Origin: Candidatus Pacearchaeota archaeon
GTDB taxonomy: Archaea > Nanobdellota > Nanobdellia > Pacearchaeales > GW2011-AR1
Length of the DNA stretch: 64,000 nucleotides
NCBI GenBank assembly: GCA_018304045.1
Contig: JAGVWZ010000016.1
Span: 18,063-82,062, forward strand
Direction of reading: 5' to 3'
In this document: one piece after another, positions 2,935 to 57,018 of the stretch
Numbering within the stretch: position 1 is the stretch's first letter
Layout of the letters: each line of letters opens with the position of its first letter
The notes under the pieces: generated by a model
Databases searched by the model: none
What the model saw: the letters and a program-made list of their open reading frames with translations, nothing else
What the model was told of the DNA's origin: nothing
Translations under genes and position numbers: made by a program

Positions 2935-2995
2935 GGTAGTAATTTAACAGGTTTTAATTCCTGAACATCCTAAAAACAAGTGCCTGTCGCAAACC

Positions 2996-3011
2996 ACACA
3001 CTAAAGTGTGT
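2996..3011. promoter_or_regulatory. NrdR-box-like 16-bp palindrome (acacactaaagtgtgt) in the nrdJ leader
   Basis: ACAC-N8-GTGT palindrome agreeing at most positions with the bacterial NrdR-box consensus acaCwAtATaTwGtgt; second box ~77 bp from the first. Confidence 0.5.
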
Positions 3012-3142
3012 TGTGGCATATTGTTTTTTTGATTTTATGTTTACTATTTTTTTAATCAACCTCTTTCATTGCTTTCTTGAAAACTTCAAATCGTTAGATT
3101 TGAATGTTGCCAAAAATTTAAAAATTTTTTAGCATTAAGATT

Positions 3143-6556: not shown

Positions 6557-6883
6557 TCATTTTATTCCTTTAGCTAAGCATTTCTTACAATATTTACTTT
6601 CATGCTGGTCTAATATTTCAAGCATAGGAAGGATAGTTTCTTTATTCAAATGATAAATTCTTTGCTTACCTTTTTGTTTCATCTGAACAATAGCACAATT
6701 CTTCAAAGATTTTAATGCATGGCTTATTTTTGATTGTTCTTCTTTTAATTCCTTTGCTAAGTCTAGAACACTCATTTCTTTTTCCTTAAGCATTCCAACA
6801 ATTCTAATTTTAAGGGGATTTGCAAGATTTCCAAAAAAAGGATAGTATTTTATATTCTCCATTGTATATTTCTTAGTATTCAT
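6557..6883 (-). CDS. ArsR/SmtB-family winged-helix transcriptional regulator
   Basis: HTH signature LANPLKIRIVGMLKEKEMSVLDLAKELKEEQSKISHALKSL; heads the iscS-iscU strand block. Confidence 0.6.
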   Translation of the reverse strand: MNTKKYTMENIKYYPFFGNLANPLKIRIVGMLKEKEMSVLDLAKELKEEQSKISHALKSLKNCAIVQMKQKGKQRIYHLNKETILPMLEILDQHESKYCKKCLAKGIK

Positions 6884-7070
6884 ATGAACTAAGGTTCATA
6901 TATAAATGTTTCTATGATACAAAATAATCATTATCCTTACTAACAATAATGCATTTAAACTCCAATTAATCAATATAAAAGAAAAGGATGGATGTTAAAC
7001 AATAACTTATCTAACCAAGCTTACCACTTACTAAACCAAGTTTTACATTAGCTAATAATATAAATATAAA

Positions 7071-8042
7071 ATGGTAAATCATAAATGCTCAATTATTGCA
7101 GATCCAGATAGTCCTGGATGGGAATTTGCAGAAAAAATTTATCATGAGCTTAGGATGAAAAGTGATTTATTTGAACTGAACAAAATTAACATTAAAAGAT
7201 TTAGAGATAATGAAATAAAACCAAAAATAGAGCTAAATGTAAGAGAAAGATATTGTTTTTTTATCCATAATTCAAATTCAAAACCAAGTGACTGGTTTTT
7301 AGAACTTGCCTTGATAAATCAAGCCCTTGTTAATTCCTCAGCCTATAAAGTGATTAATGTTCTTCCATATTTAAAATTCAGTAGGCAAGATAGAAAAGAT
7401 GAATCAAGAGTTCCAATATCTGCAAAGGCAATAGCAGATGTAATTAGTTTATATGCAAATAGGGTTCTTACCTTAGATGTACATAATCTAGCTATCCAAG
7501 GATTCTATGATACTAAGGTTATTTTTGATAGTCTTTATTCTTTTCCAACAGTTATTAATTATTTAAAAAAACACCATCCAGAAATAATCAATAATCTTGT
7601 AATAATGTCTACAGATGCAGGAGGAGCTCAAAGAGCAAAAATGTTTGCAAAATGTTTAGGAATAAAAGATATTGCAGTTGGTTATAAAACAAGGGAAAAA
7701 ACAGGAGAAGTTGAGGACTTAAAAATACTTGGAGATGTTAAAGATAAAGATGTATTAATAATTGATGATATTGTTGATTCAGGTGGAACTTTAATAAAAG
7801 CAGCAGAAGCATTGAGAAAAGAAGGTGCAAATAAAGTATATGTTTATGCAACTCATGGAATATTTACAAAAGGATATAAAGAAGTTACAGACTGCTTTGA
7901 TAAATTATTCATAGGAGATACAATAAAACAGCCAGAGGACATTAATGCCGAAATAATTTCCTTCATACCATTATTTGCAGAAGCTATCTATAGAATCAGT
8001 GAAGGTGAAAGTCTAAGTGAATTATTCAAGGATGGATATTAA
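7071..8042 (+). CDS. prs: ribose-phosphate pyrophosphokinase (PRPP synthetase)
   Basis: PRPP-binding motif VLIIDDIVDSGGTL and overall Prs-like architecture. Confidence 0.85.
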   Translation: MVNHKCSIIADPDSPGWEFAEKIYHELRMKSDLFELNKINIKRFRDNEIKPKIELNVRERYCFFIHNSNSKPSDWFLELALINQALVNSSAYKVINVLPYLKFSRQDRKDESRVPISAKAIADVISLYANRVLTLDVHNLAIQGFYDTKVIFDSLYSFPTVINYLKKHHPEIINNLVIMSTDAGGAQRAKMFAKCLGIKDIAVGYKTREKTGEVEDLKILGDVKDKDVLIIDDIVDSGGTLIKAAEALRKEGANKVYVYATHGIFTKGYKEVTDCFDKLFIGDTIKQPEDINAEIISFIPLFAEAIYRISEGESLSELFKDGY

Positions 8043-12704: not shown

Positions 12705-12714
12705 CGCCCGCGCC
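12705..12714. repeat. att-like copy of the tRNA-Asp 3' end (cgcccgcgcc), distal boundary of cassette array
   Basis: 10-bp all-GC match to the tRNA-Asp acceptor or T-stem 3' strand in ~30% GC DNA; one of four copies spaced 0.1-1.2 kb apart. Confidence 0.6.
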
Positions 12715-12745
12715 AAACTCTCGATAAAAGTGTCTCAGTTGAGCC

Positions 12746-13792
12746 TCACAAGAATATATTCCAGTAACTTTCAATCATCTCACTAGCAATAAACTGTACT
12801 AATTCAAAATAATCTTCAATTTTTACCTTAAACAAATCAGAATTATCAGCTTTTCTCATAGCTTTAAGATATTTTTCACGATTTTTATTTCTAATGACTA
12901 TTGGCGGATAATTATTTTTAATTAAAATATAATTTAGTAACATTCTTCCAGTTCTTCCATTTCCATCCATAAACGGATGGATTTTTTCAAACTTATGCTG
13001 AAAAATAATAGCTAAAACTAATGGATGAAGCTTTTCCTTATTTTCTTTATCTGAAGATTGCTTTGCAATCGAAGATTTGAGAACTCGGTTCTCATTATAC
13101 CATTTTAATAATAAATCCATATCTGTTTTTACATAAGGGGCAGGTGTTGATTTAAAATTAGCTTTTATAACCCTAACATCTTGAGTTCTATAGCCTATTC
13201 TTTTATCAATATTATCTAAAAGATTTTTGTGAATATTTATTATAAAATCATGAGTAATTTCTTCTTTACTTTCAATTACTTCAGAAAATACTTTTTCTGT
13301 ATTCTGCAAATCATAAATTTCTCTAAGTGTTCTGTTTTTAGGTGTTTTTCCATCTTCCAATAGTTTTTTTGCTTCTGCAAGTTTTATTGTATTTCCTTCA
13401 ATTGAAGTAGTATTATAAGCAAATTCTATTAGAAAATTCTTTAGAATTTCCCTGCGAGTCAAAGAATCATGTTTTTGAAATTCTCTTAAATAATGAAGTT
13501 TGCAAGCCTCAACTTCACTAAGTTTTTCTCCTAAAAATAAATCTTGTTTTAATTTTAACTTTTTGACTTCATCAACAAGCCTATTTGATTCTAGAAAATT
13601 ATGAATAGTCTTATATGCCTTTCTTATTTCATTTTTATATTTTGGAAGGTTTTCAAGTGATTTTTTTACATCTTCAGTATTACTTCCAAGATATGCTAAA
13701 TCTTTAGTAACAAGCTTATCTTCTTTTTTTTCAGATGCCCTTAAGTAATAATATTCTTTCTTTCCAATAGTTTTCTTATAGATATATGCCAT
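12746..13792 (-). CDS. Fic/DOC family protein (cassette gene)
   Basis: Fic motif HPFMDGNGRTGR. Confidence 0.85.
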   Translation of the reverse strand: MAYIYKKTIGKKEYYYLRASEKKEDKLVTKDLAYLGSNTEDVKKSLENLPKYKNEIRKAYKTIHNFLESNRLVDEVKKLKLKQDLFLGEKLSEVEACKLHYLREFQKHDSLTRREILKNFLIEFAYNTTSIEGNTIKLAEAKKLLEDGKTPKNRTLREIYDLQNTEKVFSEVIESKEEITHDFIINIHKNLLDNIDKRIGYRTQDVRVIKANFKSTPAPYVKTDMDLLLKWYNENRVLKSSIAKQSSDKENKEKLHPLVLAIIFQHKFEKIHPFMDGNGRTGRMLLNYILIKNNYPPIVIRNKNREKYLKAMRKADNSDLFKVKIEDYFELVQFIASEMIESYWNIFL

Positions 13793-13861
13793 AGGAAATC
13801 TAAGAAAGCCTAGTTTATAAATCTTACCCTTTATTTATAAAATTATATTATAAAGGGTAAA

Positions 13862-13871
13862 CGCCCGCGCC
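13862..13871. repeat. att-like copy of the tRNA-Asp 3' end (cgcccgcgcc)
   Basis: Same core as 12705, 15795 and the tRNA itself; followed by the conserved cassette-end motif caaaaggacttttagtaaat. Confidence 0.6.
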
Positions 13872-13960
13872 GAACAAAAGGACTTTTAGTAAATATTAAT
13901 AAAATTGGAAAGAACTTTTGTGAATAGAACTCTGGATAAAAGTGTCTCAGTTAGAAGAAA

Positions 13961-14209
13961 TTATTGTTCTTTTTTATGATATAAATTTAATATGATTACT
14001 CTTTCCTCATGTTTTATATAGCAATAAGAAAGTCTAAATGGAGATACATATAATTCTCTTGTTCCTCTTCGGTCATACATCATAGGTTTTCCAATTTCAG
14101 GATTATTTTTTATTTTTTCAATTTGTTTGATTACTCTTTCCTTTAAATTATTATCCTTAATTTTTGAAAATGTTTCTCTAAATTTATCATCAAAATTAAC
14201 TCTTGTCAT
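13961..14209 (-). CDS. RelE/ParE-family type II toxin (cassette gene)
   Basis: 82 aa; close paralog of 39767..40015 (shared KIKDNNLKERV...NPEIGKPM...GTRELYVSPFRLSY); RelE-like size and basic character. Confidence 0.6.
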   Translation of the reverse strand: MTRVNFDDKFRETFSKIKDNNLKERVIKQIEKIKNNPEIGKPMMYDRRGTRELYVSPFRLSYCYIKHEERVIILNLYHKKEQ

Positions 14210-14250
14210 TTTAACCTCTTTTTTATTATAATCTGAGAAATAGAATTAAA

Positions 14251-14520
14251 TCACCATTTCTTCATTTCTTCTATAAAATTGTCAAATCCCATTTCTTTAA
14301 ATTCCCCTCTTTCATACCTTTTATATGCCTCTTCAGTTCTTCTTGCAAATTCTAAATCTTCCTCAAGAGTTTTACTAAATTCATCAGCTTTTTTTAATAT
14401 TATCTGACTATCATTTTTAATTATAACAAGTTTATCTCCTTCTTTCAAATCTCCTCTCATCTCTAAAGGTATAACTATTTGTCCTTTAGAGCTTATTCTT
14501 GTTATTGATATATTTTCCAT
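14251..14520 (-). CDS. AbrB/MazE/SpoVT-type antitoxin
   Basis: Swapped-hairpin motif ISSKGQIVIPLEMR; immediately upstream of the toxin on the same strand; C-terminus similar to 39579..39773. Confidence 0.6.
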   Translation of the reverse strand: MENISITRISSKGQIVIPLEMRGDLKEGDKLVIIKNDSQIILKKADEFSKTLEEDLEFARRTEEAYKRYERGEFKEMGFDNFIEEMKKW

Positions 14521-14654
14521 GTTAAATTTTTAAATTTAATCAGACAGAAAATTCTTAATTTTCTGTATATGTAAGATTAGTCTTACTAGTATATAAATAT
14601 TTCTATGAACAAATCTTACTCTCTACAAATGATATTTGTATTGTAAGGGGTAAC

Positions 14655-14664
14655 CGCCCATGCC
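14655..14664. repeat. degenerate att-like copy (cgcccatgcc) of the tRNA-Asp 3' end
   Basis: gggtaaCCGCCCATGCCAga versus gggtaaACGCCCGCGCCGaa at 13856; it separates the toxin-antitoxin cassette from the Fic-2 cassette. Confidence 0.45.
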
Positions 14665-14812
14665 AGACACCCATCATCTGGGTATATCTTAGTGTTTTTA
14701 TAAGAATTACTTAATCTATTGAATTTATAAGAGCTGTCGAGATAAAATATATCTATTTGACTTACCCCTACATAATAGGAAGATTTAAATATGTGTAGGG
14801 GTATAAATAATT

Positions 14813-15763
14813 ATGGTAAGTGTTAAATATAAAACTATTAATGGAAAGAAATATCTTTATGCAGAACATTCTTTTAGATTGCCTAATGGCAAAATCAAAA
14901 AAATATCTAAATTAATACAAAACAAAGAAGAAGAAAAGAATAGGGGGATAAAAGATTATTTCTTAAAAAAACAAATGGAATCTTATCAGGATTATGCATT
15001 AGAAACCTATAAACCAGATAGTATACTTAATGAAGAACAGATAAAAAAATTAGAACAGATAAAAGTAGAATATAAAGAAATAATGAAATCTTTTACTAAA
15101 AATCAAATAAAAGACATTTTAGACAGATTTACTGTTAATTTTACTTATGAATCTAATGCTATTGAAGGCAATTCTTTAACTCTAAAGGATGTAACTCTTA
15201 TACTTGGGGAAAATGTTGTTCCAAAAAACAAGGATTTAAGAGAAGTTTATGAAACAAGAAATACAAGAGAAGCCCATGAATTATTATTCAAAAATAAAGT
15301 AAAAATAAATATCAAAGATATAATTAATATTCACTCTATTCTTGTAAAGGATACAGGTGTTCAATTAGGATTTAAGAAACTTCCAAATTATCTTTTAATG
15401 AGGGATTTAAAAACAACTCCTCCTGAAAAAGTTGAAGAAGAAATGAACAAACTAATCCTTTGGTATAAAGCGAGTAAAAATAAAATTCATCCATTAAGAC
15501 TCGTGAGCGAATTTCATGCAAGATTTGAAAGTATCCATCCATTTGATGATGGAAATGGAAGAACTGGAAGAATTTTGTTAAATGCTATACTTTTTGAACA
15601 TAATTATCCTCCTTTAATTATAAGAAAAACAGCAAGAATTGCATATTTTTCTTCATTAGAAGCTTTTGATAAAGGATATAAAAATAAACTAGAAAGATTT
15701 TTGCTCGATAAGATAAAAGATACCTTTGAAAAATTTTTTAAGATTTATGTTAAATATCTTTAA
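14813..15763 (+). CDS. Fic/DOC family protein (cassette gene)
   Basis: Fic motif HPFDDGNGRTGR. Confidence 0.85.
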   Translation: MVSVKYKTINGKKYLYAEHSFRLPNGKIKKISKLIQNKEEEKNRGIKDYFLKKQMESYQDYALETYKPDSILNEEQIKKLEQIKVEYKEIMKSFTKNQIKDILDRFTVNFTYESNAIEGNSLTLKDVTLILGENVVPKNKDLREVYETRNTREAHELLFKNKVKINIKDIINIHSILVKDTGVQLGFKKLPNYLLMRDLKTTPPEKVEEEMNKLILWYKASKNKIHPLRLVSEFHARFESIHPFDDGNGRTGRILLNAILFEHNYPPLIIRKTARIAYFSSLEAFDKGYKNKLERFLLDKIKDTFEKFFKIYVKYL

Positions 15764-15794
15764 ATATAAGGACCAGAATAGGATATAACAAATC

Positions 15795-15804
15795 CGCCCG
15801 CGCC
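15795..15804. repeat. att-like copy of the tRNA-Asp 3' end (cgcccgcgcc)
   Basis: Exact 10-bp copy 108 bp from the tRNA 3' end. Confidence 0.6.
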
Positions 15805-15911
15805 TGTTTAAATTCCCATTTCTTTATTATTAATCTTACCAAAATGATAATTTAAAACTCAAACATCGGGTTCCCCGAGTTCATAGTCTCGGTTAAAATT
15901 ATAAGAGAAAG

Positions 15912-15983
15912 CGCCCGCGCCGAGACTCGAACTCGGGTTGCATCCGTGACAGGGATGAGTGCTAACCACTACACTACGCGGGC
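15912..15983 (-). tRNA. tRNA-Asp (anticodon GTC)
   Basis: Manual fold: acceptor GCCCGCG/CGCGGGC; anticodon stem CATCC/GGATG with loop CTGTCAC; T-arm CCGAG-TTCGAGT-CTCGG; discriminator G; no encoded CCA. Confidence 0.8.
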
Positions 15984-18700: not shown

Positions 18701-18925
18701 ATGTCAGAAATTAAACCACATCTTTTAAGATGTGGATGTTTACTTGTTTTAATTTCTGAGCCATCAAAATATTTTAAATATTTTGTGGCGCCTAAAACTT
18801 CTGAAAGTTTTAGTGCGCATCCTAAAAACAAGTGCCTGTCACAAACCACACATGTCAGAAATCTTTTATGGATTTCTGAGCACTATTGAGAATTAAAAAT
18901 TCTCAAAGCTTTAGTGTGTTAAGTA
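18701..18925. ncRNA. copy B of the nrdJ-leader element family (orphan copy between convergent genes)
   Basis: atgtcagaaattaaaccacatcttttaagatgtgg...gttttaatttctga ... cctaaaaacaagtgcctgtcacaaaccacaca aligns with 2901..3016; outer stem shows compensatory changes (ggaattaaaac/gttttaattcc versus agaaattaaac/gttttaatttct); extra 9-bp perfect hairpin ctaaaacttctgaaagttttag. Confidence 0.4.
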
Positions 18926-20304: not shown

Positions 20305-20898
20305 TCAAGCTAAAGAATATACTCCATCTCTTGCTTTATATACAACAGCCCCTCTAAGGTATCCCTGTTCATGGTTCATTGGAAGTGCTAAATTCATTAT
20401 ATGAACTAATTCTTCTGCAGCATCCTCATTTGTATGTCCTGGAAATCTAGCTCTTAAGGAGTATTTTAAGCCAGATAAAGCCCTTGCCTCAGGTTCAATA
20501 CTTCCTCTATTTTCATGCTCAACATTGATTCTATAGTCATCAGGATAGGCTAATAATTCTCTTAATTTAGGATCAAGTTGTAATTCAGCACTTCCTTCAG
20601 ATAACACAAGTTCAAGTCCCTCAGGAGTTTGAGCATCTCTTTTAATATATGGTAAACTTTTCTCAATTCCCCCTTTACTTACAGCACAATCAAAAAAAGC
20701 ATAGGCTTCTCCAACATCAGTTTCACCAGCATTTCCGCACTTTCGTCTAAGAAAATCAGTTCTACTAGGCACAACTTTTCTTTCTTGCCTGTCGATAAAT
20801 GACATGTCTCTAGGGTATACTTCTTTATTTGCCATAGGATATAATAGCTTCACAACTATATAAACCTTATCATTAGTGTAACTTAAAAGTAATAACAA
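20305..20898 (-). CDS. hypothetical protein (compositionally GC-richer than its surroundings)
   Basis: No recognised motif; likely start at MANKEVYPRD; elevated GC suggests horizontal acquisition. Confidence 0.35.
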   Translation of the reverse strand: MLLLLSYTNDKVYIVVKLLYPMANKEVYPRDMSFIDRQERKVVPSRTDFLRRKCGNAGETDVGEAYAFFDCAVSKGGIEKSLPYIKRDAQTPEGLELVLSEGSAELQLDPKLRELLAYPDDYRINVEHENRGSIEPEARALSGLKYSLRARFPGHTNEDAAEELVHIMNLALPMNHEQGYLRGAVVYKARDGVYSLA

Positions 20899-21018: not shown

Positions 21019-21075
21019 AGTTAATTAAGGATTTTGAACATTATAAACTAATCACTTTGCTCTAGAAGGGATAAA

Positions 21076-21090
21076 TCCCAGGGAGAGAGC
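21076..21090. repeat. att-like copy of the tRNA-Tyr 3' end (tcccagggagagagc)
   Basis: Matches tRNA-Tyr 3' terminal sequence tccccagggagagag (22260..22274); distal boundary of the array. Confidence 0.55.
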
Positions 21091-21172
21091 GATATTACTC
21101 CCTACTTTTCAGAATTAGATATATAGGCACTGTATTAATAAAATTTATAAGTATTTTAATTCTTAATAATCT

Positions 21173-21487
21173 ATGTATAGAGTTTTTCGTTCTGGAAAAT
21201 ATGAAAAGAGGCTAAATAAATTAGATAAATCCGAATCAGATAGAGTTGTTGATTTTGAACAATCCTTAAAAATTGAGCCTTATAATGGAAAACCTTTAGG
21301 ATATGAATTTTTTAGGGAGAAAAAATTCAATGGAAATAGAATTATATTCTTAATTTATGAACAACATAAATGTGTTTTCCTTGTAGTTATAACTAATAAG
21401 AAAATACAACAACAAGAAATTAATCTGATAAAAGCAAATCTTGATGTTTACAAAGAGGAAATAGAAAAAAGAATAAAAGAACTTTAA
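21173..21487 (+). CDS. RelE/ParE-superfamily toxin-like protein (cassette gene)
   Basis: 104 aa; GKPLGYEFFREKKFNGNRIIFLIYEQHKCVFLVVI resembles the RelE/StbE core. Confidence 0.45.
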   Translation: MYRVFRSGKYEKRLNKLDKSESDRVVDFEQSLKIEPYNGKPLGYEFFREKKFNGNRIIFLIYEQHKCVFLVVITNKKIQQQEINLIKANLDVYKEEIEKRIKEL

Positions 21488-21702
21488 ATTTCTTTTATAT
21501 TTCCCTGAATTATATCTTTTATACCTTCCGCTATCTCTTTAATAAGTTCTCCATCTACTTCTTTACATTTTATTAATTCTTCATATTCTTCTCTTGAAAT
21601 AGTTATTGTCTCTTCCATGATAATTTTAGTATTTTTAGGTTTAAATAATTGTTGGTTATAGCTAAATAATATCCCCTGGGAGAGAGCAAAACAAAAGTTC
21701 AT
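21484..21702 (-). CDS. small hypothetical protein (probable start at MEETITISREEYEEL, ~44 aa)
   Basis: Convergent with and 4 bp overlapping the toxin-like gene; helical acidic peptide. Confidence 0.25.
   Translation of the reverse strand: MNFCFALSQGILFSYNQQLFKPKNTKIIMEETITISREEYEELIKCKEVDGELIKEIAEGIKDIIQGNIKEI
21672..21687. repeat. att-like copy of the tRNA-Tyr 3' end (tcccctgggagagagc)
   Basis: Second copy separating two cassettes. Confidence 0.55.
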
Positions 21703-21713
21703 TCCCTCTGATT

Positions 21714-22196
21714 TTAATCGGATTTATAAAAATCATAAACCTGTTCATCAGCCCATACTCTTTCAGAGTCAGGAACTTCTGTATCCACAGCCCATTTTCT
21801 TTTGTTTTTGGGTGTTGCATTAAGAACATTATTCATAAATTCTAATTTTCTTTCTTTAACTGTTTTTTTATCAGTATCTTCTAATCTCCATCCATTTAAT
21901 ACAAATTCTACAAACCTCATGTGGTCTGGATGTCTCATATAGGCTAACATTTCATCTTCTGAGTCAAATGTGATGTTCATTCCAACATCAAATCTATATA
22001 CTTGAACTGCCCTTCCAGAATCATATCTTGGAGCAACTAAAAAATCTCTAACTCCAGGTATTTGAGCTAGATATCTATTTGCATTATCAATAATTTGCTG
22101 TACAGCTTGAGGATTATTAGGATTAGTTTGATATAAGACTATGTGGCTAAATCCATTACCTAATATTTTTTCTAAATCTACATTCTCAGTTACCAT
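21714..22196 (-). CDS. hypothetical protein, possible Dabb/stress-responsive alpha-beta barrel domain (cassette gene)
   Basis: N-terminal FSHIVLYQT...resembles Dabb starts; otherwise unassigned. Confidence 0.3.
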   Translation of the reverse strand: MVTENVDLEKILGNGFSHIVLYQTNPNNPQAVQQIIDNANRYLAQIPGVRDFLVAPRYDSGRAVQVYRFDVGMNITFDSEDEMLAYMRHPDHMRFVEFVLNGWRLEDTDKKTVKERKLEFMNNVLNATPKNKRKWAVDTEVPDSERVWADEQVYDFYKSD

Positions 22197-22259
22197 AAAT
22201 TTATCAGAATTCTCTAATTTAAAAATCTTTCCATTTTGTAATAACTATATAGTAACAAA

Positions 22260-22331
22260 AATATAAACATCCCCAGGGAGAGAGTCGAACTCCCGTCATC
22301 CGGTCTACAGCCGAAGGTAATAACCGTTATA
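22260..22331 (-). tRNA. tRNA-Tyr (anticodon GTA), archaeal-type C1:G72
   Basis: Manual fold: acceptor CCCCAGG/CCTGGGG; anticodon stem TTCGG/CCGGA with loop CTGTAGA; T-arm GGGAG-TTCGACT-CTCTC; discriminator A. Confidence 0.7.
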
Positions 22332-22476
22332 CGACCTGGGGATCTGATTTTGCCATATATTCCTCCATTCCTCTGAAATCAGGTCCACAGGGAATTGGGA
22401 TAAACATACTAAAAAGTTACTATATTTAAAGATTTGTTTTGAATAAGTTTAAATAATATATATTTTACTGCAGTTT

Positions 22477-34213: not shown

Positions 34214-34687
34214 ATGCTAAAAAAAGGTTTAGGGCTTATAGGTCTTGTAGTTACAATTTTAATATTCTTTAGTGGAGGATTGTTTAGTTTTTACTTTTTT
34301 GATATTAAGACAAGTATTCCATTACTTAATGCACTTATTATAACAATAAAACCGTTTATACTCCCAATTGCTATTTTTTGTGTTATACCTTTAATTGTGT
34401 TTATAATCTGCGTATTGAGAGCAAAACCCAATACTAATATAGATGAGATATTCTTTTGGAAAATATTGAATTTAATTACTCATCTTATATTATTAATTTT
34501 AATATTATTTATTATTGGTTGGTTTTGGGCATTGATGATGATAGGATTAATGATAATTTCAAATAATATTAATATTTCATTAATAATCCCCTGCATCATA
34601 GTAATTGTTTCTATATTTGTAATAGATGCATTAGTACAAAAACATTTTAAGATTAGATATTATAATATACTTCATTGGCTTAAATAG
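34214..34687 (+). CDS. integral membrane protein
   Basis: Four to five TM helices. Confidence 0.35.
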   Translation: MLKKGLGLIGLVVTILIFFSGGLFSFYFFDIKTSIPLLNALIITIKPFILPIAIFCVIPLIVFIICVLRAKPNTNIDEIFFWKILNLITHLILLILILFIIGWFWALMMIGLMIISNNINISLIIPCIIVIVSIFVIDALVQKHFKIRYYNILHWLK

Positions 34688-35549
34688 AAGCCATTTTAAT
34701 TAATCCCAACCATCTATTTTCTCCTAAATCTAAATCTTGACCTGCAAGAGAACAAGGAACTTGTTTAGTTGTGGTATGTTCTTCTATAAAATTATGTTGT
34801 ATGGTTAGACCTGCCATGATTATTGGAGCAGACCAAAGGGCTTTCAATCCTCTAAAATCATCAACTCTATCTTTAATCTTCATAAAAACAGTTTCTATTT
34901 TATAATTATGAATATGAGTTTTATGATAATTTTGTATTTTATGCTCTACTTCATAACCACCACCAAAACCTAATTTATTATTGTAAAACATTTTTTTAAA
35001 TGCCTTAGGATAGAAAACTCCTGCATCTGTTTGAATAAACTTGGGTTTTCCTTTGCTTATTGCTTTCTCTAAGAATATTTTTGCTTGATTAGGATTTGTA
35101 GCTGTGCTATAATGTATTCCAGTAATCATTCTAGTATTCCAGTCAACACAACACCAATATTTATCTAAATGCCCACTTCTATTGATTACTGTTTCATCAG
35201 CATAAAATGAATTACCTAGATTATAACCTAATTTTTCAACAAAGTTATAAACCTTTAGAGCATACTTGTAAACCCAGTTTAAAATAGTTTGATGGCTTAC
35301 TTTAAAATTGAAATGTCTTTTTAATTGGTTTCTCATTTTTCTGCTTGAAAGGTTTGATAAGTACATATCAATGGACATAGCAATAGTTCTATTATCAGTT
35401 CTCATCCTATAAAAGCCATTGTCAGCAGTAAAGTATTTCTTACAATCAGAACAATAGTATTTCTGAATCTTACCTCTATTTTCAGTTTTTCTGTATCCTT
35501 GCTTTGAAAAGTTGATACTTCCACAATGCTTACATTTTATTTCTTGTTT
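34680..35549 (-). CDS. IS6-like DDE transposase with N-terminal zinc finger
   Basis: N-terminal CKHCGS...CSDCKKYF zinc finger; DDE candidates ADETVIN / IQTDAGVFYPKAFK / NFIEEHTTTK resemble the IS6/IS26 DETY...TDKAPAY...IEQ spacing; probable start at MKQEIKCKHCG. Confidence 0.5.
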   Translation of the reverse strand, partial: KQEIKCKHCGSINFSKQGYRKTENRGKIQKYYCSDCKKYFTADNGFYRMRTDNRTIAMSIDMYLSNLSSRKMRNQLKRHFNFKVSHQTILNWVYKYALKVYNFVEKLGYNLGNSFYADETVINRSGHLDKYWCCVDWNTRMITGIHYSTATNPNQAKIFLEKAISKGKPKFIQTDAGVFYPKAFKKMFYNNKLGFGGGYEVEHKIQNYHKTHIHNYKIETVFMKIKDRVDDFRGLKALWSAPIIMAGLTIQHNFIEEHTTTKQVPCSLAGQDLDLGENRWLGLIKMASI

Positions 35550-35680
35550 CATAATATATTCATGTACCTGAACTATATAAATGTTTCGGTACATGAAAAA
35601 GATATTTAAATACAAAAAAGCTTATAAACTGATAAAAAGAAGAGAAGAAAAGGTAATTGTGATATAACCAAGATTTAAAA

Positions 35681-36382: not shown

Positions 36383-36599
36383 ATTAATAATTTATTCTTT
36401 TTCAATTAAAATTTTTCCATCATTCAATGATGCTTTAAGTTCTTTTCCTAATAACTTAGATTCTTTTACGACATCCTTAGGTAAAATTAAAATATATCTA
36501 TTATAAGTAACATCACCTATTTTCTTGTCTAATACTTCACGAATTTTCATAGAATAAACAGGTACATGAAGTATTTAAAACTTTAGGTACATGAAAGAA

Positions 36600-37394
36600 T
36601 TATTTTAATATCTCTTTTAAATCAAGATTAATAGATTCAAAATATTTAACTGGGCTATTTTTTTTCAAATTCTTTGTTGTTTTACCTTCTTTAAATAAAT
36701 CAATAAAATTTGATAAACCTTTTTTATATTTTTCTTTTATTTTAGGAAGAAGTTTTTCCTTAGCCTGATTTAAACAATTCTTGCTACAAAAATTTCTAGT
36801 TATTTTATTCTCTTTAAAATTAATGAATCTATTGTTATGTTCTTTTCCACAAACAATACAAATATCTTTCTCATCAGTTATTCTTTGTCTAAAAGAATAA
36901 CCATATTTATTAATATAACAATCCGCGCATTTAGATGAACAAAAGTCAGCCATATTACTAAACCCTGCATTTGAATGAATTATAAAGCCATCATGTCCTT
37001 TTCCGCACACTATACATTTATACCTAAACTTCATCCCAAATAATCTTTTAAAAAAAAGTTTTGGTTTATGAAACCAAATCCTACCTTGTATAATTTCTCC
37101 TTTTTCAGTATTAGGTTTATTCGGTTTAGAAATAAGTTTTTCTTCTTTAGGTTTAACAACAAAACATTTAATTTTTTGTTTTTCCATTTGCGGCTTAATT
37201 TCTGAAAGATATTCTTGTAATCCTTTAATTTTACTATAATCCGTTTCATCAGTCTTCATTCTTAAAAATAAAGTTCTTTCTATTTTATTATTAATCGTCT
37301 GATTTCCAAATCCTTCTATTTCAAAATAAGCATTTGGAGAGGGTTCGGTAATATTTATTACTTTGTCATGAGTCTTTCTATTTTCCTTTTTCAT
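36600..37394 (-). CDS. protein with two TRASH/zinc-ribbon-like metal-binding modules
   Basis: CIVCGKGHDGFIIH...FCSSKCADCY and CIVCGKEHNNRF...FCSKNC (Cx2C-x19-22-Cx3C TRASH spacing). Confidence 0.45.
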   Translation of the reverse strand: MKKENRKTHDKVINITEPSPNAYFEIEGFGNQTINNKIERTLFLRMKTDETDYSKIKGLQEYLSEIKPQMEKQKIKCFVVKPKEEKLISKPNKPNTEKGEIIQGRIWFHKPKLFFKRLFGMKFRYKCIVCGKGHDGFIIHSNAGFSNMADFCSSKCADCYINKYGYSFRQRITDEKDICIVCGKEHNNRFINFKENKITRNFCSKNCLNQAKEKLLPKIKEKYKKGLSNFIDLFKEGKTTKNLKKNSPVKYFESINLDLKEILK

Positions 37395-38603: not shown

Positions 38604-38756
38604 GACTAAATCAGGATTTTTAAGAATTTAAACTTTGCTGCCCAGTTTTAATATGGATTAATAAATCTTGCCATACTACTCTATGGTTAAAATGACCTAA
38701 CCTAAACATAAAATCTTTTAAACCCCTTTTTATTGTTATGTTATATTCAAAATATT

Positions 38757-38882
38757 GCGCCGCTAGTTTAGTGGTAGAACATATCGTTGCCAATAAAGAA
38801 ATTAGATTAATTTCTAATTTTTCCTTTCATAAGGAAAGAAAGCAAAAACGATAGGATCCGAGTCCGATTCTCGGGTGGCGCA
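38757..38882 (+). tRNA. tRNA-Gly (anticodon GCC) with ~55-nt intron after position 37
   Basis: Exon 1 GCGCCGC-TA-GTTT-AGTGGTA-GAAC-A-TATCG-TTGCCA; intron aataaagaaatt...gcaaaaa (approximately 38793..38847); exon 2 (A)CGATA-GGAT-CCGAG-TCCGATT-CTCGG-GTGGCGC-A; acceptor 7 bp with one G:U. Confidence 0.7.
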
Positions 38883-39007
38883 TTCATATTTGCAAGGCAA
38901 ATATGTCATCCGGGATGTCGTAAAGAATTCAAACAGTGATAAGGTCTGATTCCGAGCAAAAGGACTTTTAGTAAATTTGATAGAATAAGAAAGCACTTTT
39001 GCGAGTA

Positions 39008-39018
39008 GGGTGGCACAT
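39008..39018. repeat. att-like copy of the tRNA-Gly 3' end (gggtggcacat)
   Basis: tRNA ends cgggtggcgca; the copy is preceded by the conserved cassette-end motif. Confidence 0.55.
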
Positions 39019-39081
39019 TTTATTATTTTCTAGTAGTAACAAAATAGGAAGATTTAAAAATGTTAAAGAATAGTTAATTTT

Positions 39082-39537
39082 ATGGGATATGATTATAAAA
39101 GTTTAGAAGATTTTAAAATGGGTTTTCCATTTCTTCGTAGCTGTAGCAAACTTGGAGATTTTAAACTTTTTATTATAGGTGAAGAAAAAAGTGAAAGATT
39201 AAGGGCTTGTGAATTTACCCAAGGAGTTCTTGAGAGAATGTTGGATGAAGCTAAAAGCTCTGGAGATATTAGAGACTATGAAGTAAAAATCATTGATCTT
39301 GCAACTTCTACTAAAGCTACTCGAATTGATCCATTATATCCAGAAGAATGGGGAAGAATAGGAAATAAAGATGGTTTAGTTTTTCTTCCAATATTTCATA
39401 ATACAGATGGTGAACCATGCTTACCTCAAGTTGCATTTGATGAGCATTTACCGGCGATTTTTTCAGTTTCACAAAAAGGATATAATGCAGTAGTAAATCG
39501 TTCTAAAAGAGATTGTTATGATACTGTAAGAGTTTAG
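39082..39537 (+). CDS. hypothetical protein (cassette gene)
   Basis: ORF only. Confidence 0.3.
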   Translation: MGYDYKSLEDFKMGFPFLRSCSKLGDFKLFIIGEEKSERLRACEFTQGVLERMLDEAKSSGDIRDYEVKIIDLATSTKATRIDPLYPEEWGRIGNKDGLVFLPIFHNTDGEPCLPQVAFDEHLPAIFSVSQKGYNAVVNRSKRDCYDTVRV

Positions 39538-39578
39538 TAAACCAAAAATTTTATAAATAATCATTTACTATAAACTAC

Positions 39579-39773
39579 ATGGAAACACAAACAATAGACA
39601 ATTTGTCAAAAGAAGTAATGCTGTTAAAAAAAGAATTTGCTAAAATGAAAGAATTCATGGAAGAAGATCTTGAATTTGCAAAAAGAACAGAAGAAGCATG
39701 GCAGGAAATTGATGAAGGAAAATGCACTTGTATAAATTCTGAAGACTTTTTAAAAGAAATTAAAAAATGGTAG
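39579..39773 (+). CDS. antitoxin (C-terminally similar to 14251..14520)
   Basis: EEDLEFAKRTEEAWQE...FLKEIKKW versus EEDLEFARRTEEAYKR...FIEEMKKW; immediately precedes and overlaps the toxin gene. Confidence 0.5.
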   Translation: METQTIDNLSKEVMLLKKEFAKMKEFMEEDLEFAKRTEEAWQEIDEGKCTCINSEDFLKEIKKW

Positions 39774-40015
39774 AAATAATCTATGCAGATAGATTCAAAA
39801 GAACATTATCAAAAATTAAGGATAATAATCTTAAAGAGAGGGTAGCAAAACAAATTGCAAAGATTATTGAAAATCCTGAAATAGGCAAACCAATGAGTTA
39901 TAATAGAAAAGGGACAAGAGAACTTTATGTTTCACCATTTAGGCTATCTTATGCTTTTATCTCACATCAAAATACAATTTATTTTTTAGATTTGTATCAT
40001 AAGGATGAACAATAA
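39767..40015 (+). CDS. RelE/ParE-family toxin, paralog of 13961..14209
   Basis: ~70% identical to the tRNA-Asp-array toxin. Confidence 0.6.
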   Translation: MVEIIYADRFKRTLSKIKDNNLKERVAKQIAKIIENPEIGKPMSYNRKGTRELYVSPFRLSYAFISHQNTIYFLDLYHKDEQ

Positions 40016-40060
40016 AAGTTCAATTTCCCATATTGAAAATCGCATTTTGGGTGGGTACCC

Positions 40061-40072
40061 GGGTGGCGCATG
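40061..40072. repeat. att-like copy of the tRNA-Gly 3' end (gggtggcgcatg)
   Basis: Preceded by cccgggtgg as in the tRNA. Confidence 0.55.
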
Positions 40073-40109
40073 CTTTTTTTTATAGAAGAGAAATTAGGGA
40101 ATCGAACTT

Positions 40110-40820
40110 TTAACTTATTTCTATCCTTCTACAGGCTAAACATAAAACATCTTTATAAGCATCTTCTCCTACCAAAACTGCTGTAAAATCATATTCTGCT
40201 ATTTGATTACCAGAAATATTATTTGCAATAACCTGTCCTTTGGCAATATTATCAAAATTATTTATCAAGACATTCTCTTTAGATTTTTTTATTATATTAA
40301 AGACCTCAAATATCTCCATATCCTCATTAATCTTATTTTCAATGATATTTTTTATTAACAAGCTTGCTTCTTCTACATTTTCTTTCCTATTATGTGGACC
40401 TACTTCGATGCTTATGCCACAATCAACAAAATCTATTAATGCTTTTCCACTTGCAAAAAATTCAGGCATTATAACTAATTTTTTTAAACCCAATAGTTTT
40501 GCAAATTCTATTTTTTCATTATTTGGTTTTGTTATTATCCCAAACATAGGGCAGTTATTAGATGAAGAATGAATATCTATTATATAATAAAAATCTTTTA
40601 GTCTTTTAATCAGATTATAGGCCAGTTTTTCCTCATGATTCCCATCTATCTTTCCTGGAAAACATCGGTTTAAATCAGTATCTATAAATCTTTTATTCTC
40701 AATAAATGCTTTTTTATTTGAAAGAAAAAAAGGGAAGAAAGACTGGTTTTTACTAACTTCAAAGCCATATCTTTCATTCCCATGTAAACAACAAACAATT
40801 GCTAAATTTTTCATAGTCAC
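40110..40820 (-). CDS. succinylglutamate desuccinylase/aspartoacylase (AstE/AspA) family zinc hydrolase-like protein
   Basis: Conserved CCLHGNERYG (HGNE) motif and IIDIHSS block. Confidence 0.5.
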   Translation of the reverse strand: MTMKNLAIVCCLHGNERYGFEVSKNQSFFPFFLSNKKAFIENKRFIDTDLNRCFPGKIDGNHEEKLAYNLIKRLKDFYYIIDIHSSSNNCPMFGIITKPNNEKIEFAKLLGLKKLVIMPEFFASGKALIDFVDCGISIEVGPHNRKENVEEASLLIKNIIENKINEDMEIFEVFNIIKKSKENVLINNFDNIAKGQVIANNISGNQIAEYDFTAVLVGEDAYKDVLCLACRRIEIS

Positions 40821-40821
40821 G

Positions 40822-41289
40822 TTATAAGATACCTATTGCAAGAACCGCATCTCCCTTATCTAATGCCATTTTCAAATCTTGTTTAAAGAATCTACTTACT
40901 GAACAATGTTCTGGTTCTCTTCCATAGAAAAGTCCTCCATAATATCCTTTGACTACTCCATTAGAATCAGAATTACAATTAAGATAGACTGCAAACTCTT
41001 CTTGTAGAGTTCTAATTTGCCTAGGCATGCCACTCAATCCTGGAAATGTACTTTGGCAGTAATTCAACAATGCTTTATACATTCTTGGATTTTGAGTCCT
41101 TAAACATATTGCTCTTTCTCCATTGATTGCTTGATTTGTAATCTCTCTAAATATTCCCTTTCCTTGAATAGATGAATCTAGACAAATTCCTTCTACAATT
41201 AGAGAAGGAAATCCTGCAAAAGATCTTCTATTATAACTTGCCATTGCTTTGATTTCTCCATTTCTAAGAAGAAATACTCTTTCTGGCAA
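40822..41289 (-). CDS. GNAT-family N-acetyltransferase-like protein
   Basis: Motif A-like IVEGICLDSSIQGKGIF; adjacent to the AstE/AspA-like gene. Confidence 0.45.
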   Translation of the reverse strand: MPERVFLLRNGEIKAMASYNRRSFAGFPSLIVEGICLDSSIQGKGIFREITNQAINGERAICLRTQNPRMYKALLNYCQSTFPGLSGMPRQIRTLQEEFAVYLNCNSDSNGVVKGYYGGLFYGREPEHCSVSRFFKQDLKMALDKGDAVLAIGIL

Positions 41290-41764
41290 AGTTATATGAT
41301 TATAGATATCTTGAAAATCTAAATCCCTCCCAAATCCATTTCTTACAACACTTACAACTTGTTCTAAATCATCAGGATTTGAATCAAAATGCTTCTTAGG
41401 ATTTGTGATTTCTTCTATGTTGCCAAAGACAGCTAGAAGATTTAATTATTTTATTTACCATTTTACTCCTGACCTCCTTTCAGCCTTTTTCAGAAAGAAT
41501 TTCAAAATAAGAAAGATTAAATTAACAGGGCTATGCCCAGGGATATTGAATTAAAAATTTATTATATAGGGTTTTAACTAGGAAGAATATAATTTTATTG
41601 CCAGAGATAACCTCTAGATTGTATTGTCATATAAATTTGATTATTAATTGCTATTTAAATTTTCCTATTCAATTCCCTCCTTTAAAAAAGCAAAATCCCT
41701 GGCTTCTTGAGTATCTAACCTACCCAACCAAAAATTTTATATAGCTTACTTTCTAAGAATAAAT

Positions 41765-41926
41765 ATGGAAAACGAAGAATTAATTATAAGCAAATTAGAT
41801 GTATTAAAACAAGAAATTGACTTTATTAAAAAACATTTAATAGATGTAACTTTAACTCAAGATGATGTTAAATCTTTATGTGAAGCTGAAGAAGATTTAA
41901 AAAAAGGAAGAACAAAGAGGTTGTAA
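41765..41926 (+). CDS. 53-aa antitoxin-like protein upstream of RelE/ParE toxin
   Basis: MENEELIISKLDVLKQEIDFIKKHL...; stop 1 bp before the toxin start codon; below ORF-track cutoff. Confidence 0.45.
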   Translation: MENEELIISKLDVLKQEIDFIKKHLIDVTLTQDDVKSLCEAEEDLKKGRTKRL

Positions 41927-41927
41927 A

Positions 41928-42188
41928 ATGTATTTTGTAGAGCTATCAGTTAAAGCTCAAGATTTCTTAGAAAAAATTGATAAAGATACTAAAGATAGAA
42001 TAGAAAAAAGATTAAAAAATCTTGAAAGTAATCCTATTCCAAGCGATTCAAAATTTATTGGAAGAGATAATAATGAAATGGTTTTTAGATACAGGATTGG
42101 TAAATTCAGAGCTCTGTATAAAGTTAAAGAAGCTCAAAAGATAATTTTAGTCACTAAAATTGATAAAAGAGACAAAGTTTATGATTAA
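41928..42188 (+). CDS. RelE/ParE-family toxin
   Basis: 86 aa; FRYRIGKFRALYKV...IILVTKIDKRDKVY typical RelE/StbE C-terminal region. Confidence 0.6.
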   Translation: MYFVELSVKAQDFLEKIDKDTKDRIEKRLKNLESNPIPSDSKFIGRDNNEMVFRYRIGKFRALYKVKEAQKIILVTKIDKRDKVYD

Positions 42189-42304
42189 ACTAAATTCCTT
42201 ATAGTAAAACAATAAAATTTTGTGCAAACTGAACTTTTTTCTTGTTTACGAGCAAAAGGACTTTTAGCAAATTCGATGAAATAAGAAAGCACTTTTGCGA
42301 GTAG

Positions 42305-42315
42305 GGTGGCGCATG
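42305..42315. repeat. att-like copy of the tRNA-Gly 3' end (gggtggcgcat)
   Basis: Preceded by the conserved cassette-end motif (42253..42304). Confidence 0.55.
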
Positions 42316-42364
42316 TTTTACTGAACATTATATAGTCCTTAAACTAAAATGTGGTAGCCGAGAA

Positions 42365-42375
42365 GGGTAGCGCAT
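42365..42375. repeat. att-like copy of the tRNA-Gly 3' end (gggtagcgcat), last of the array
   Basis: 50 bp after the previous copy (empty cassette). Confidence 0.45.
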
Positions 42376-47070: not shown

Positions 47071-47231
47071 CTTTTATAAAAAGAAGTTATAAGGATTATT
47101 GTTCTAGATGAATCTCAAAAATATGGGCCCACGCGGCCCTAGAATCGCGGAGAGCTCGGTGTAAAAAATAAGAACCTTTTTGTATCCAAAAGAATAATAA
47201 TATTTATAAACTGTACAGTTTATTATATTGT

Positions 47232-48497: not shown

Positions 48498-49066
48498 AGT
48501 CTTCTGGGCATTTCAAATAATTTTATCATCTTCTCATCTAACTTCTTTTTAAAATCGTCAGGTCTACCTTTTTGTTTAATAATATAATAGATAACATAAA
48601 ACTTTATTGCAGAGATAAAAATATTTTCTCCAGCATTAAGTTCACATATAACTTCTCTTGCTTCAGGATTATCATATATTTCATTTAAGAATTTCTTTTC
48701 TCTTTGATTTAATTTAATATGCAATTCATCAAATGAATCAAATATAAATTTTATTTTAATTTTATGAACAGGGCTTCTTTGAGTATATTTTGTTCCATTG
48801 AAGTTTGTTTTATTTATTGCATCTGTTCCTTCTTCAATATAATCTGCTTCTTTGAGTTTATCAAATACTTTTGTCACAGCTCCAATACTTTTTACATCTT
48901 TTTTAGTATTTGGATATAATTTTCTCGTAACTTCTCCATGTGTAACAAACTTTCTAAAATATTCTAAAGCGACTTTGTTTTCTCCTATCCCTTTTATCAA
49001 TGGGGGTCTTACAGCAGGATAAACTATTATTGGTTCATCATCTAAAGTTTTTTTTCCTTTCTTCAT
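48494..49066 (-). CDS. hypothetical protein (mobile-element gene)
   Basis: ORF only. Confidence 0.3.
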   Translation of the reverse strand: MKKGKKTLDDEPIIVYPAVRPPLIKGIGENKVALEYFRKFVTHGEVTRKLYPNTKKDVKSIGAVTKVFDKLKEADYIEEGTDAINKTNFNGTKYTQRSPVHKIKIKFIFDSFDELHIKLNQREKKFLNEIYDNPEAREVICELNAGENIFISAIKFYVIYYIIKQKGRPDDFKKKLDEKMIKLFEMPRRL

Positions 49067-49115
49067 TTTAGGGTACCATTAACAGGTATATTAAGTATTT
49101 ATACTTTATTATAAA

Positions 49116-49259
49116 ATGGAACTACAAAAACCAATAAAATGTGAATGCAAGAAGTGCGGCTGGTGCTGGTATTCTACACTTGGCAGAAAACCAAAAGTCT
49201 GCGTCAGGTGCAAGAGGTATGACTGGCAGGAGGAGAAAGATGAGCGAAAACAGCAATGA
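49116..49259 (+). CDS. 47-aa zinc-ribbon protein (MELQKPIKCECKKCGWCWYSTLGRKPKVCVRCKRYDW...)
   Basis: CxCxxC...CxxC; alternative frame to the listed ORF 49141..49395, whose N-terminus (MNARSAAGAG...) looks non-genuine. Confidence 0.35.
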   Translation: MELQKPIKCECKKCGWCWYSTLGRKPKVCVRCKRYDWQEEKDERKQQ

Positions 49260-53012: not shown

Positions 53013-53063
53013 TTTTTCCGTCGACAAAGGGATAGTATTTAAACTTTAACTCATTAGAGATAT

Positions 53064-57016: not shown

Positions 57017-57018
57017 GA

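Follow-up and report, generated by a model that had tools for sequence, protein, structure and literature searches.

Why should an intact tRNA gene be trailed by displaced copies of its own 3′ end, with small sets of genes lodged between them and no recombinase gene among them? We address this question for the tRNA-Tyr(GUA) gene of a Candidatus Pacearchaeota archaeon and the two gene cassettes behind it, which lie in a 64,000-nucleotide stretch of contig JAGVWZ010000016.1 (the window; G+C ~28%). On balance, we think it probable that the cassettes are small units lacking an integrase of their own, inserted one at a time at the T-loop/3′ end of the tRNA gene by a recombinase acting in trans. The locus would then be a variant, of miniature size and free of an integrase, of the known integration arrays anchored on tRNA genes, here in a Pacearchaeota member of the DPANN archaea.

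Copies of the tRNA-Tyr 3′ end

The array comprises the following features (window coordinates; ORF, open reading frame):

22269–22342, minus strand: intact tRNA-Tyr(GUA), the anchor of the array (ARAGORN; Rfam RF00005, 53.3 bits)
21688–22268, minus strand: cassette A, tRNA-proximal, 581 bp, probably the younger unit (ORF list; Pfam)
21714–22196, minus strand: 160-aa Dabb (stress-responsive alpha/beta-barrel) gene, co-oriented with tRNA-Tyr (Pfam PF07876, E = 3.1e-12)
21671–21687, minus strand: copy c1 of the tRNA-Tyr 3′ end, GCTCTCTCCCAGGGGAT in tRNA sense, with one mismatch, in the acceptor strand
21091–21670, both strands: cassette B, distal, 580 bp, probably the older unit (ORF list)
21484–21618, minus strand: 44-aa ORF, convergent with the RelE-fold gene and overlapping it by 4 nt (ORF list)
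21173–21487, plus strand: RelE-fold gene of 104 aa (AlphaFold2 and Foldseek)
21075–21090, minus strand: copy c2 of the tRNA-Tyr 3′ end, GCTCTCTCCCTGGG-AT, with one G deleted; the outermost boundary of the array

The anchor gene is 74 nt long and has the short variable arm of the archaeal type. The repeated core corresponds to its last 16–17 nt, which read atccccagggagagagt on the plus strand (22269–22285) and contain the 3′ strand of the T-stem, the 3′ strand of the acceptor stem, the discriminator and one further base. On the same strand, copy c1 reads atcccctgggagagagc and copy c2 reads atcccagggagagagc. In tRNA sense, identity between gene and copies runs from the end of the T-loop to one base past the discriminator, and a degenerate T-arm-like piece stands just upstream of each copy (GGGAATGAACTTTTGTTTTG at c1 and GGGAGTAATATCG at c2). 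Neither copy has CCA, and both run in the sense of the tRNA, which excludes an origin by tRNA-primed reverse transcription, in which the copies would be analogues of a primer-binding site. A role of these boundaries at the RNA level was also set aside, as the c1 and c2 regions fold no better than shuffled sequences (z = +0.39 and +0.87).

To what extent could such short matches arise by chance? As a probe we used the plus-strand 15-mer TCCCCAGGGAGAGAG (22270–22284), which covers, as reverse complement, the discriminator and the 3′ strands of the acceptor stem and T-stem. Allowing up to three mismatches on both strands of the 64 kb, it finds just two extra matches, at 21672–21686 (one mismatch) and 21075–21089 (a 1-nt deletion). 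Shuffles give an expectation of 0.33 matches per window, and 0 of 100 shuffles reach three. Moreover, both copies lie on the tRNA's strand, downstream and within 1.2 kb of its 3′ end, an interval in which ~0.003 chance matches are expected by arithmetic from the shuffle value.

The original prediction, made from the letters of the window, had two copies of the tRNA-Tyr 3′ end delimiting two ~0.6-kb cassettes, and the boundaries and unit lengths listed above bear this out. It also had the contents right, a 160-aa gene and a RelE-like gene, but in swapped order: the 160-aa gene is proximal to the tRNA and the RelE-like gene distal. The minus strand that it gave for tRNA-Tyr holds, whereas the gene runs to 22342 rather than to 22331.

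The three Tyr tails start at 21075, 21671 and 22269, giving spacings of 596 and 598 bp that are nearly equal despite the unrelated sequences of the two units; this is probably coincidence.

Contents of the two cassettes

Cassette B carries the stronger signs of being a discrete unit. Its 104-aa protein has a weak RelE-like match in PHROG (E = 1.3e-3) and no Pfam match, and a search of PDB sequences with the family profile returned nothing useful. An AlphaFold2 model built with 30 homologues, however, has a predicted local distance difference test score (pLDDT) of 93, and its top Foldseek matches in the PDB are RelE toxins: 9g12_B (E = 9.6e-6), followed by 3g5o, 2khe, 4fxe and the archaeal RelE 1wmi, with TM-scores to RelE toxins of 0.63 and 0.77 (query- and target-normalised). 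As modelled, the protein has the RelE-type alpha/beta fold, and the 'RelE-like' label that it had been given beforehand is correct. Relative to RelE toxins it has an extra C-terminal helix (residues 76–103). The module shares this fold with type II RelBE modules, but differs from them in that the small partner is convergent and overlaps the 3′ end of the toxin gene by 4 nt, with no co-directional antitoxin gene upstream. The 44-aa partner is a putative antitoxin. For the RelE-like family there are 160 homologues, nearly all with a length of ~104 aa and with identities of 59–94% among the 120 listed; those with a named source come from metagenome-assembled genomes (MAGs) of Pacearchaeota, Woesearchaeota or Nanoarchaeota.

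Window positions 21138–21657, within cassette B, match a locus in another Nanoarchaeota MAG (L049) at 82% identity over 520 nt. At that locus (6961–7418), the convergent pair of RelE-fold gene and 44–48-aa ORF is conserved together with its 4-nt overlap, the neighbouring genes are unrelated, and ARAGORN calls no tRNA in the 14 kb. Outside the match remain 13 nt on the proximal side of cassette B and 47 nt on its distal side, the latter with the T-arm-like piece; both stretches adjoin copies of the attachment (att) site. By this comparison, cassette B behaves as a discrete transferable module.

Cassette A carries a promoter-like AAAGATTTTTAAAT and the Dabb gene. We considered this gene as a travelling cassette and rejected the idea, as its homologues are not found near tRNAs. 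The ORFs of both cassettes, compared with Pfam, PHROGs, NCBIfam and PADLOC, include no recombinase. The array is flanked by a cupin gene and by genes without a known function. Directly past copy c2 lies an ORF of 177–197 aa, co-oriented with tRNA-Tyr (20305–20898), with a G+C of 0.32 against ~0.28 for the window and no match in Pfam, PHROG, NCBIfam or PADLOC; it could represent an older, third unit that no longer has its outer boundary.

Arrays at other tRNA genes of the window

The tRNA-Tyr array has counterparts at two further tRNA genes:

15911–15983, minus strand: tRNA-Asp(GUC), anchor of a sister array at 12705–15983
15795–15804, ~14654–14667, 13862–13873 and 12705–12720, minus strand: copies of the tRNA-Asp tail (sequence comparison)
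38756–38883, plus strand: tRNA-Gly(GCC) with a 55-nt intron, found by ARAGORN with its intron option and missed by default ARAGORN and Rfam
39008–39018, 40060–40071, 42304–42314 and 42365–42375, plus strand: copies of the tRNA-Gly tail, in an array at 38756–42375

The tRNA-Asp array consists of a 106-nt empty unit, a Fic gene (316 aa), a MazE/ParE unit and a second Fic gene (348 aa). Its Fic genes, at 12746–13792 and 14813–15763, encode proteins that match SoFic and PDC-S04, candidate defence families in PADLOC. The tRNA-Gly array consists of a 134-nt empty unit, a 151-aa gene with an antitoxin/ParE pair, an AstE_AspA-family gene with a ParE pair, and a 62-nt unit; its ParE is 66% identical to that of the Asp array. 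Altogether, ten copies are found at the three tRNAs, of which only the 3′ tail is ever kept. The stretch of identity starts, in each of the three arrays, at the junction of T-loop and T-stem and stops one base past the discriminator, as is typical of an att core; copies or cores are 12–17 nt long. The units measure 0.1–2.2 kb and hold one to five genes, mostly one to three.

A census with 13-nt probes for the 3′ ends of the four tRNAs of the window, allowing up to two edits, gave two cognate matches for Asp, two for Tyr and three for Gly, all downstream and on the same strand. It gave no cognate match upstream or on the opposite strand for any of the four, and non-cognate probes gave no match in 30 tests. 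Because the matches are cognate and downstream only, the motif is not dispersed, the possibility that the original prediction had named as its undoing; the copies are specific to their tRNA and fixed in orientation. The prediction had also counted such arrays at three of the four tRNA genes. The recurrence stands, but the count rises to four of four, the fourth being the intron-containing tRNA-Gly(GCC). All four tRNA genes of the window are thus marked by partial copies, those of tRNA-Val being of a different kind that breaks at the anticodon loop.

We looked for traces of the machinery expected in mobile elements. In the ten units examined, which include a polymorphic 2.7-kb unit described below, no terminal inverted repeats rise above the shuffled background (all ≤95th percentile). 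The scanned cassette ORFs, those of the Asp array and its flanks having been compared with one or more of Pfam, PHROGs, NCBIfam and PADLOC, give no match to an integrase or transposase. Nor did we see integrase fragments or other gene debris in the units, whose genes are intact and have promoters. A 175-aa ORF beyond the Asp array, considered as a relative of an ORF beside the window's integrase, proved not to be homologous.

Gene-free modules in other genomes

GTDB representatives, among which the genome of the window is not included, were scanned with a 20-mer of the tRNA-Tyr tail. It occurs in two species, one of Pacearchaeota (L027) and one of Nanoarchaeia (L028); in metagenome contigs there are four matches, one by chance (L030) and one in the same sequence as L027. 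In both species, tRNA-Tyr is followed by a gene-free module of 142–148 nt that ends in a degenerate copy of the tail (L027, 6041–6182; L028, 565–712). In L027, an Ocnus-family gene and a Fic gene come after the module (Fic at 6839–7765; Pfam Fic, E = 4e-21, the only database against which this gene was scanned). The modules of the two species are homologues, and the 134-nt unit that follows the tRNA-Gly gene of the window (38886–39019) is a more distant homologue of both. Empty units of 106–148 nt that share one architecture are found in three species.

The layout of these modules is a hairpin right after the tRNA (H1), a second hairpin (H2), a T-loop-like piece, a stem of ~12 bp with a conserved loop of ~20 nt (H3) and the core. 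This last hairpin sits in the position of the T-loop and is flanked by (C)GAG...CGAG; across three sequences, nine base pairs of its stem are altered on both sides, that is, by compensatory changes. Variants of it also precede Asp copy c3 (13870–13930) and Gly copy c3 (42249–42310), while Asp copy c4 has the same upstream flank as c3 without the hairpin. Such a module could be an arm of the attachment site of an incoming element (attP), a miniature integrative element or an intron-like insertion. A BLAST comparison with 280 kb of DPANN loci brought up no additional copies of the modules, and mini-module patterns run against viral contigs returned one chance match in a GC-rich phage, or nothing.

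Variation among population contigs

Sequence nearly identical to the window (>99.6%) is present in more than 20 groundwater metagenome contigs, Rifle samples included, the longest of 93 kb. In one variant (JGI 3300025121; L012 2008–4709, Ga0208375_1002248), an extra 2.7 kb is found at the 5′ end of tRNA-Asp, with the insertion point at window 15983/15984. This unit encodes an AsnC/HTH-type protein of 320 aa and a radical-SAM-like protein of 466 aa, and no integrase. At its two ends stand the first bases of tRNA-Asp as a direct repeat, exact over 13 nt (plus strand ACACTACGCGGGC) or ~17 nt long with one indel. The unit is missing in at least six other contigs, making it a presence/absence polymorphism. 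Where it is inserted, the promoter of tRNA-Asp must come from the element. Integration into the 5′-distal part of a tRNA gene is rare and has been documented in archaea (PMC6563490).

The integrase of the window and tRNA-Val

One recombinase gene is present in the window, among pieces of tRNA-Val:

47232–48497: tyrosine recombinase of 421 aa, the sole integrase in the window (phrog_1, E = 1.3e-10; Pfam weak)
47125–47165: inverted piece resembling the tRNA-Val 3′ half, directly upstream of the integrase gene
57926–57956: orphan 3′ part of tRNA-Val, starting at TTTACAC
61152–61195: inverted orphan 5′ half of tRNA-Val

Residues R213, R215, R218, K299, R302, H325 and Y335 of this protein are invariant among 25 homologues. 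Its gene adjoins a PrimPol-MCM gene (1079 aa), in an element at window 47125–57621 for which we found no convincing bounding direct repeats. The protein has 483 homologues at E < 1e-10; the best 120 are 45–98% identical (most 45–66%), and nearly all of those with a source name are from DPANN MAGs. The integrase profile found no relatives in viral contigs and nothing useful among PDB sequences.

In three other DPANN genomes (L041, L043 and L045), the homologous integrase gene begins 65–75 nt behind a lone tRNA-Val(UAC) 5′ half, which stops at the anticodon loop TTTACAC; short contigs often break there. The position of these 5′ halves before the integrase gene implies an integration that replaces the 5′ half. 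An intact tRNA-Val lies ~9 kb downstream of the integrase in the window, where the tRNA-Val pieces are rearranged relative to those three genomes. Hence, the family appears to act at the anticodon loop of tRNA-Val, and the lineage is one that hosts tRNA-targeting tyrosine integrases. Because of this tie to tRNA-Val, the integrase of the window is not an obvious candidate for the enzyme of the Tyr array.

A model of serial integration by a recombinase in trans

The original prediction offered no mechanism; scars of this kind are normally read as the result of serial site-specific integration. Cognate, co-oriented tail copies behind an intact tRNA, units stacked outward and cores of 12–17 nt form the footprint of this process. 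According to the model that we favor, the tRNA-Tyr island would record two successive recombination events in the T-loop/3′-end segment. The incoming DNA would have carried a mimic of the last ~17 nt of the tRNA, sometimes with a T-arm-like piece in front of it. Recombination within the shared core would rebuild a working tRNA from the incoming copy and push the previous 3′ end outward, where it would survive as an orphan boundary. By this logic, the RelE-toxin unit B probably arrived before the Dabb unit A. Because the units measure ~0.6 kb, have their own promoters and lack a recombinase, the enzyme, most likely a tyrosine recombinase, would have acted in trans or from a helper element outside the array. 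Once a unit had been inserted, its retention would be favored by cargo of the toxin type, namely RelE at tRNA-Tyr and ParE and Fic at tRNA-Asp and tRNA-Gly. The occurrence of one toxin–antitoxin family in both the Asp and the Gly arrays (ParE) and of Fic also downstream of the tRNA-Tyr module of L027 is consistent with this model and lends it support. The 520-nt block shared with L049, the presence/absence polymorphism of the 2.7-kb unit at tRNA-Asp and the tRNA-targeting tyrosine integrases of the lineage count in its favor as well.

The model makes specific predictions. An empty or partly filled Tyr site should show the tail ...CTCTCTCCCTGGGGAT joined directly to TTTATCCCTTCTAGAGC or ATTATTTAGCTATAACC, and a circular form of unit B should carry the attP junction ...GTAGGGAGTAATATCG-CTCTCTCCC[T/A]GGGGAT-ATTATTTAGCTAT. 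The crossover would be expected to fall between T-loop and discriminator.

Several observations weigh against serial integration in trans. The Tyr locus carries both cassettes in 24 of 24 public contigs, with no empty site and no circular junction among them, and hence nothing that suggests recent mobility. A mismatch or an indel separates each copy from the tRNA-Tyr gene, meaning that the insertions are not recent or that the incoming cores were imperfect. No recombinase targeting the T-loop/3′ end of tRNA-Tyr, -Asp or -Gly was found in the window. As for the cargo, the RelE module of L049 has no visible tRNA-like boundary, and homologues of the Dabb protein (57–72% identity) occur in ordinary, tRNA-free contexts, which give no indication that cassette A travels. 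Finally, two genomes that share the tRNA-Tyr tail (L029 and L032) have no copies of it within 2.3–2.8 kb downstream, and two tRNAs in L043 have no tail copies either. Because these tRNAs stand alone, the arrays are lineage-specific insertions rather than a property of the tRNA.

Alternative explanations

The units might instead be the decayed remains of larger, integrase-bearing proviruses or plasmids, in which internal deletion left selectable or addictive genes between att copies. Decay is a common fate of integrated elements, toxin–antitoxin and Fic genes are expected to resist deletion, the Tyr array is fixed in all 24 contigs, and a complete integrase/PrimPol-MCM element lies in the same window. 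In addition, tycheposon islands hold degenerate elements and scattered partial tRNAs (10.1101/2020.12.28.424599). What makes this explanation rather unlikely in our view is the tidiness of the arrays. Ten att copies survive in three arrays, whereas deletions at random would in most cases have taken out a copy of 16 nt or left fragments behind; the genes of every unit are intact and have promoters, with no integrase fragments or debris seen; unit B matches the free-standing 520-nt module of L049 almost end to end; and empty units of 106–148 nt that share one architecture recur in three species. If the units were only decayed proviruses, the locus would be an ordinary, if unusually dense, integration scar.

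The remaining explanations rank far behind a recombinase in trans and provirus decay. Integration might need no dedicated recombinase and proceed by host homologous or microhomology (Campbell-type) recombination through 12–17 nt of identity. The lack of a cognate integrase in the window would agree with this, and tRNA tails are among the few sequences common to divergent genomes (L029, an unrelated genome, has an identical tRNA-Tyr). Yet an identity of 12–17 nt gives homologous recombination very little length to act on, the left limit of the match is one structural position, the T-loop/T-stem junction, in three arrays, and several junctions in different species share homologous hairpin-bearing arms. 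Because of this fixed edge and these shared arms, the site is more readily understood as one recognised by a protein, and we judge the short-homology route improbable. Target-site duplication by a transposase or casposase-like enzyme is less probable still. Casposons produce 14–15-bp duplications at tRNA 3′ ends, and the repeats of 13–17 nt and the tRNA-tail target seen here resemble insertions of family-2 casposons; tandem casposon insertions are cited in PMC6563490. However, none of ten units has terminal inverted repeats above shuffles, there is no Cas1 or PolB in the window and no transposase in the cassettes, and the copies are not identical, unlike fresh duplications. We reject a chance match, a dispersed motif and the decay of tandem tRNA-Tyr genes, a set of possibilities with the short length of the repeats and nothing else to recommend it: two extra matches within 1.2 kb and on the correct strand stand against an expectation of 0.33, non-cognate controls are negative in all 30 tests, and decay of whole genes would differ from a pattern in which only the 3′ tail is kept, in ten copies at three tRNAs.

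Comparison with known systems

She and colleagues are said to have described, between 2001 and 2004, archaeal arrays of elements that arose when tyrosine recombinases re-used a tRNA att site. In archaea, integration as a rule targets the 3′-distal part of tRNA genes, att sites have a median length of 17 bp (in thaumarchaea), and arrays form when a site is used again (PMC6563490, Krupovic et al. 2019). The 12–17 nt of the copies described here lie within the reported range of att lengths. The Tyr locus resembles these arrays in having copies of the 3′-distal tRNA as short direct repeats, a regenerated tRNA at the proximal end and insertions that stack outward. By contrast, the known elements carry multiple genes, measure several to tens of kb and encode their own integrase, whereas the units here measure 0.1–2.2 kb and have no recombinase. 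In addition, all four tRNA genes in 64 kb are occupied here. Thus, what is unusual is the size of the units, the lack of integrase or debris, the ten surviving boundaries, the occupation of four of four tRNAs, the toxin and Fic cargo and the conserved gene-free modules.

Tycheposon islands are seeded at tRNAs, hold partial tRNAs between elements, receive newer arrivals next to the tRNA, and accumulate remnants and cargo in a streamlined genome (Hackl et al., 10.1101/2020.12.28.424599). The tRNA-proximal island described here, with partial tRNA copies between its units, is alike in these respects, and the tRNA-Val element of the window, with its tyrosine recombinase and primase-helicase, resembles the tycheposon core module. 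The differences are that this is another domain of life, that no integrase lies in or beside the Tyr, Asp and Gly arrays, that the units are far smaller, and that their cargo is mostly toxin–antitoxin and Fic genes, where tycheposons carry nutrient-acquisition genes. The units also differ from casposons and other DNA transposons, as they have neither terminal inverted repeats nor, in the scanned ORFs, a gene for Cas1 or a transposase.

Elements without an integrase that are mobilised in trans or in cis are familiar from bacteria, such as the cis-mobilizable elements (CIMEs) of Streptococcus, which spread by accretion and mobilisation, and the integrative mobile elements exploiting Xer (IMEX), which use XerCD at dif. 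Like these, the units are flanked by att copies, carry no recombinase and lie in tandem at one chromosomal site; unlike them, their site is a tRNA gene in an archaeon, and their mobilisation in trans is hypothetical.

Integrons, which Ghaly and colleagues reportedly found in Archaea in 2022, offer another parallel. Their units are likewise of ~0.5–1 kb with one or two genes, each ends in a copy of the recombination site, toxin–antitoxin cassettes are frequent, and the newest unit adjoins the anchor. However, no IntI-type integrase gene with attI lies beside the array, its units are bounded by tRNA-tail copies instead of attC hairpins, and the cassette genes have their own promoters and both orientations. 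Some Asp and Gly units do end in a hairpin of ~55 nt, but its flanks are direct (C)GAG...CGAG repeats and not the inverted R''/R' core sites of attC.

A bolder version of integration in trans, which we regard as doubtful at present, would have Pacearchaeota and other DPANN archaea capture cassettes in the manner of integrons, with tRNA 3′ ends as docking sites. Cassettes would circulate as circles of 0.1–2 kb, each made of a gene or gene pair and a tRNA-tail mimic, and conserved hairpin arms would flank the mimic, corresponding to the H1 and H3 modules that follow tRNA-Tyr in two further species and tRNA-Gly and tRNA-Asp in the window. A tyrosine recombinase encoded on the chromosome or a plasmid would act in trans to insert, stack and possibly shuffle them. 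If so, most tRNA genes of these genome-reduced symbionts would give them access to a flexible stock of genes for toxins and defence. DPANN genomes are ~1 Mb in size, and gene exchange among them is poorly understood. More generally, if integrase-less units with a single gene dock routinely, tRNA genes would be the main entry points for flexible genes, here mostly toxin–antitoxin and Fic or other defence-type genes, a parallel in another domain of life to integrons and to the tycheposon islands of Prochlorococcus. Serial docking of this kind would also point to pairs of recombinase and target with very short, well-defined sites.

Other features of the window

An IS240-type DDE transposase gene, unrelated to the tRNA arrays, lies at 34680–35615, and a 66-nt direct repeat (77% identity) is found at 35547–35612 and 36545–36610, 1 kb apart. 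Two stretches that occur in every compared public contig spanning these positions are absent from the window: 101 nt at 18919 and ~85 nt at 29720, the latter in an (ATA)n tract. A 35-nt segment occurs at both 2966–3040 and 18818–18919 of the window, with 97% identity between the two; after it come a CCACACA...TGTGTGG hairpin, the sequence GTGGCA(C/T)ATTG and a T run. The 101-nt deletion removes the 3′ half of the second copy, the full form of which is present in a public contig (L011, 7545–7680). These two segments may be paralogues of a small RNA gene, one of them with a 62-nt insertion in its loop.

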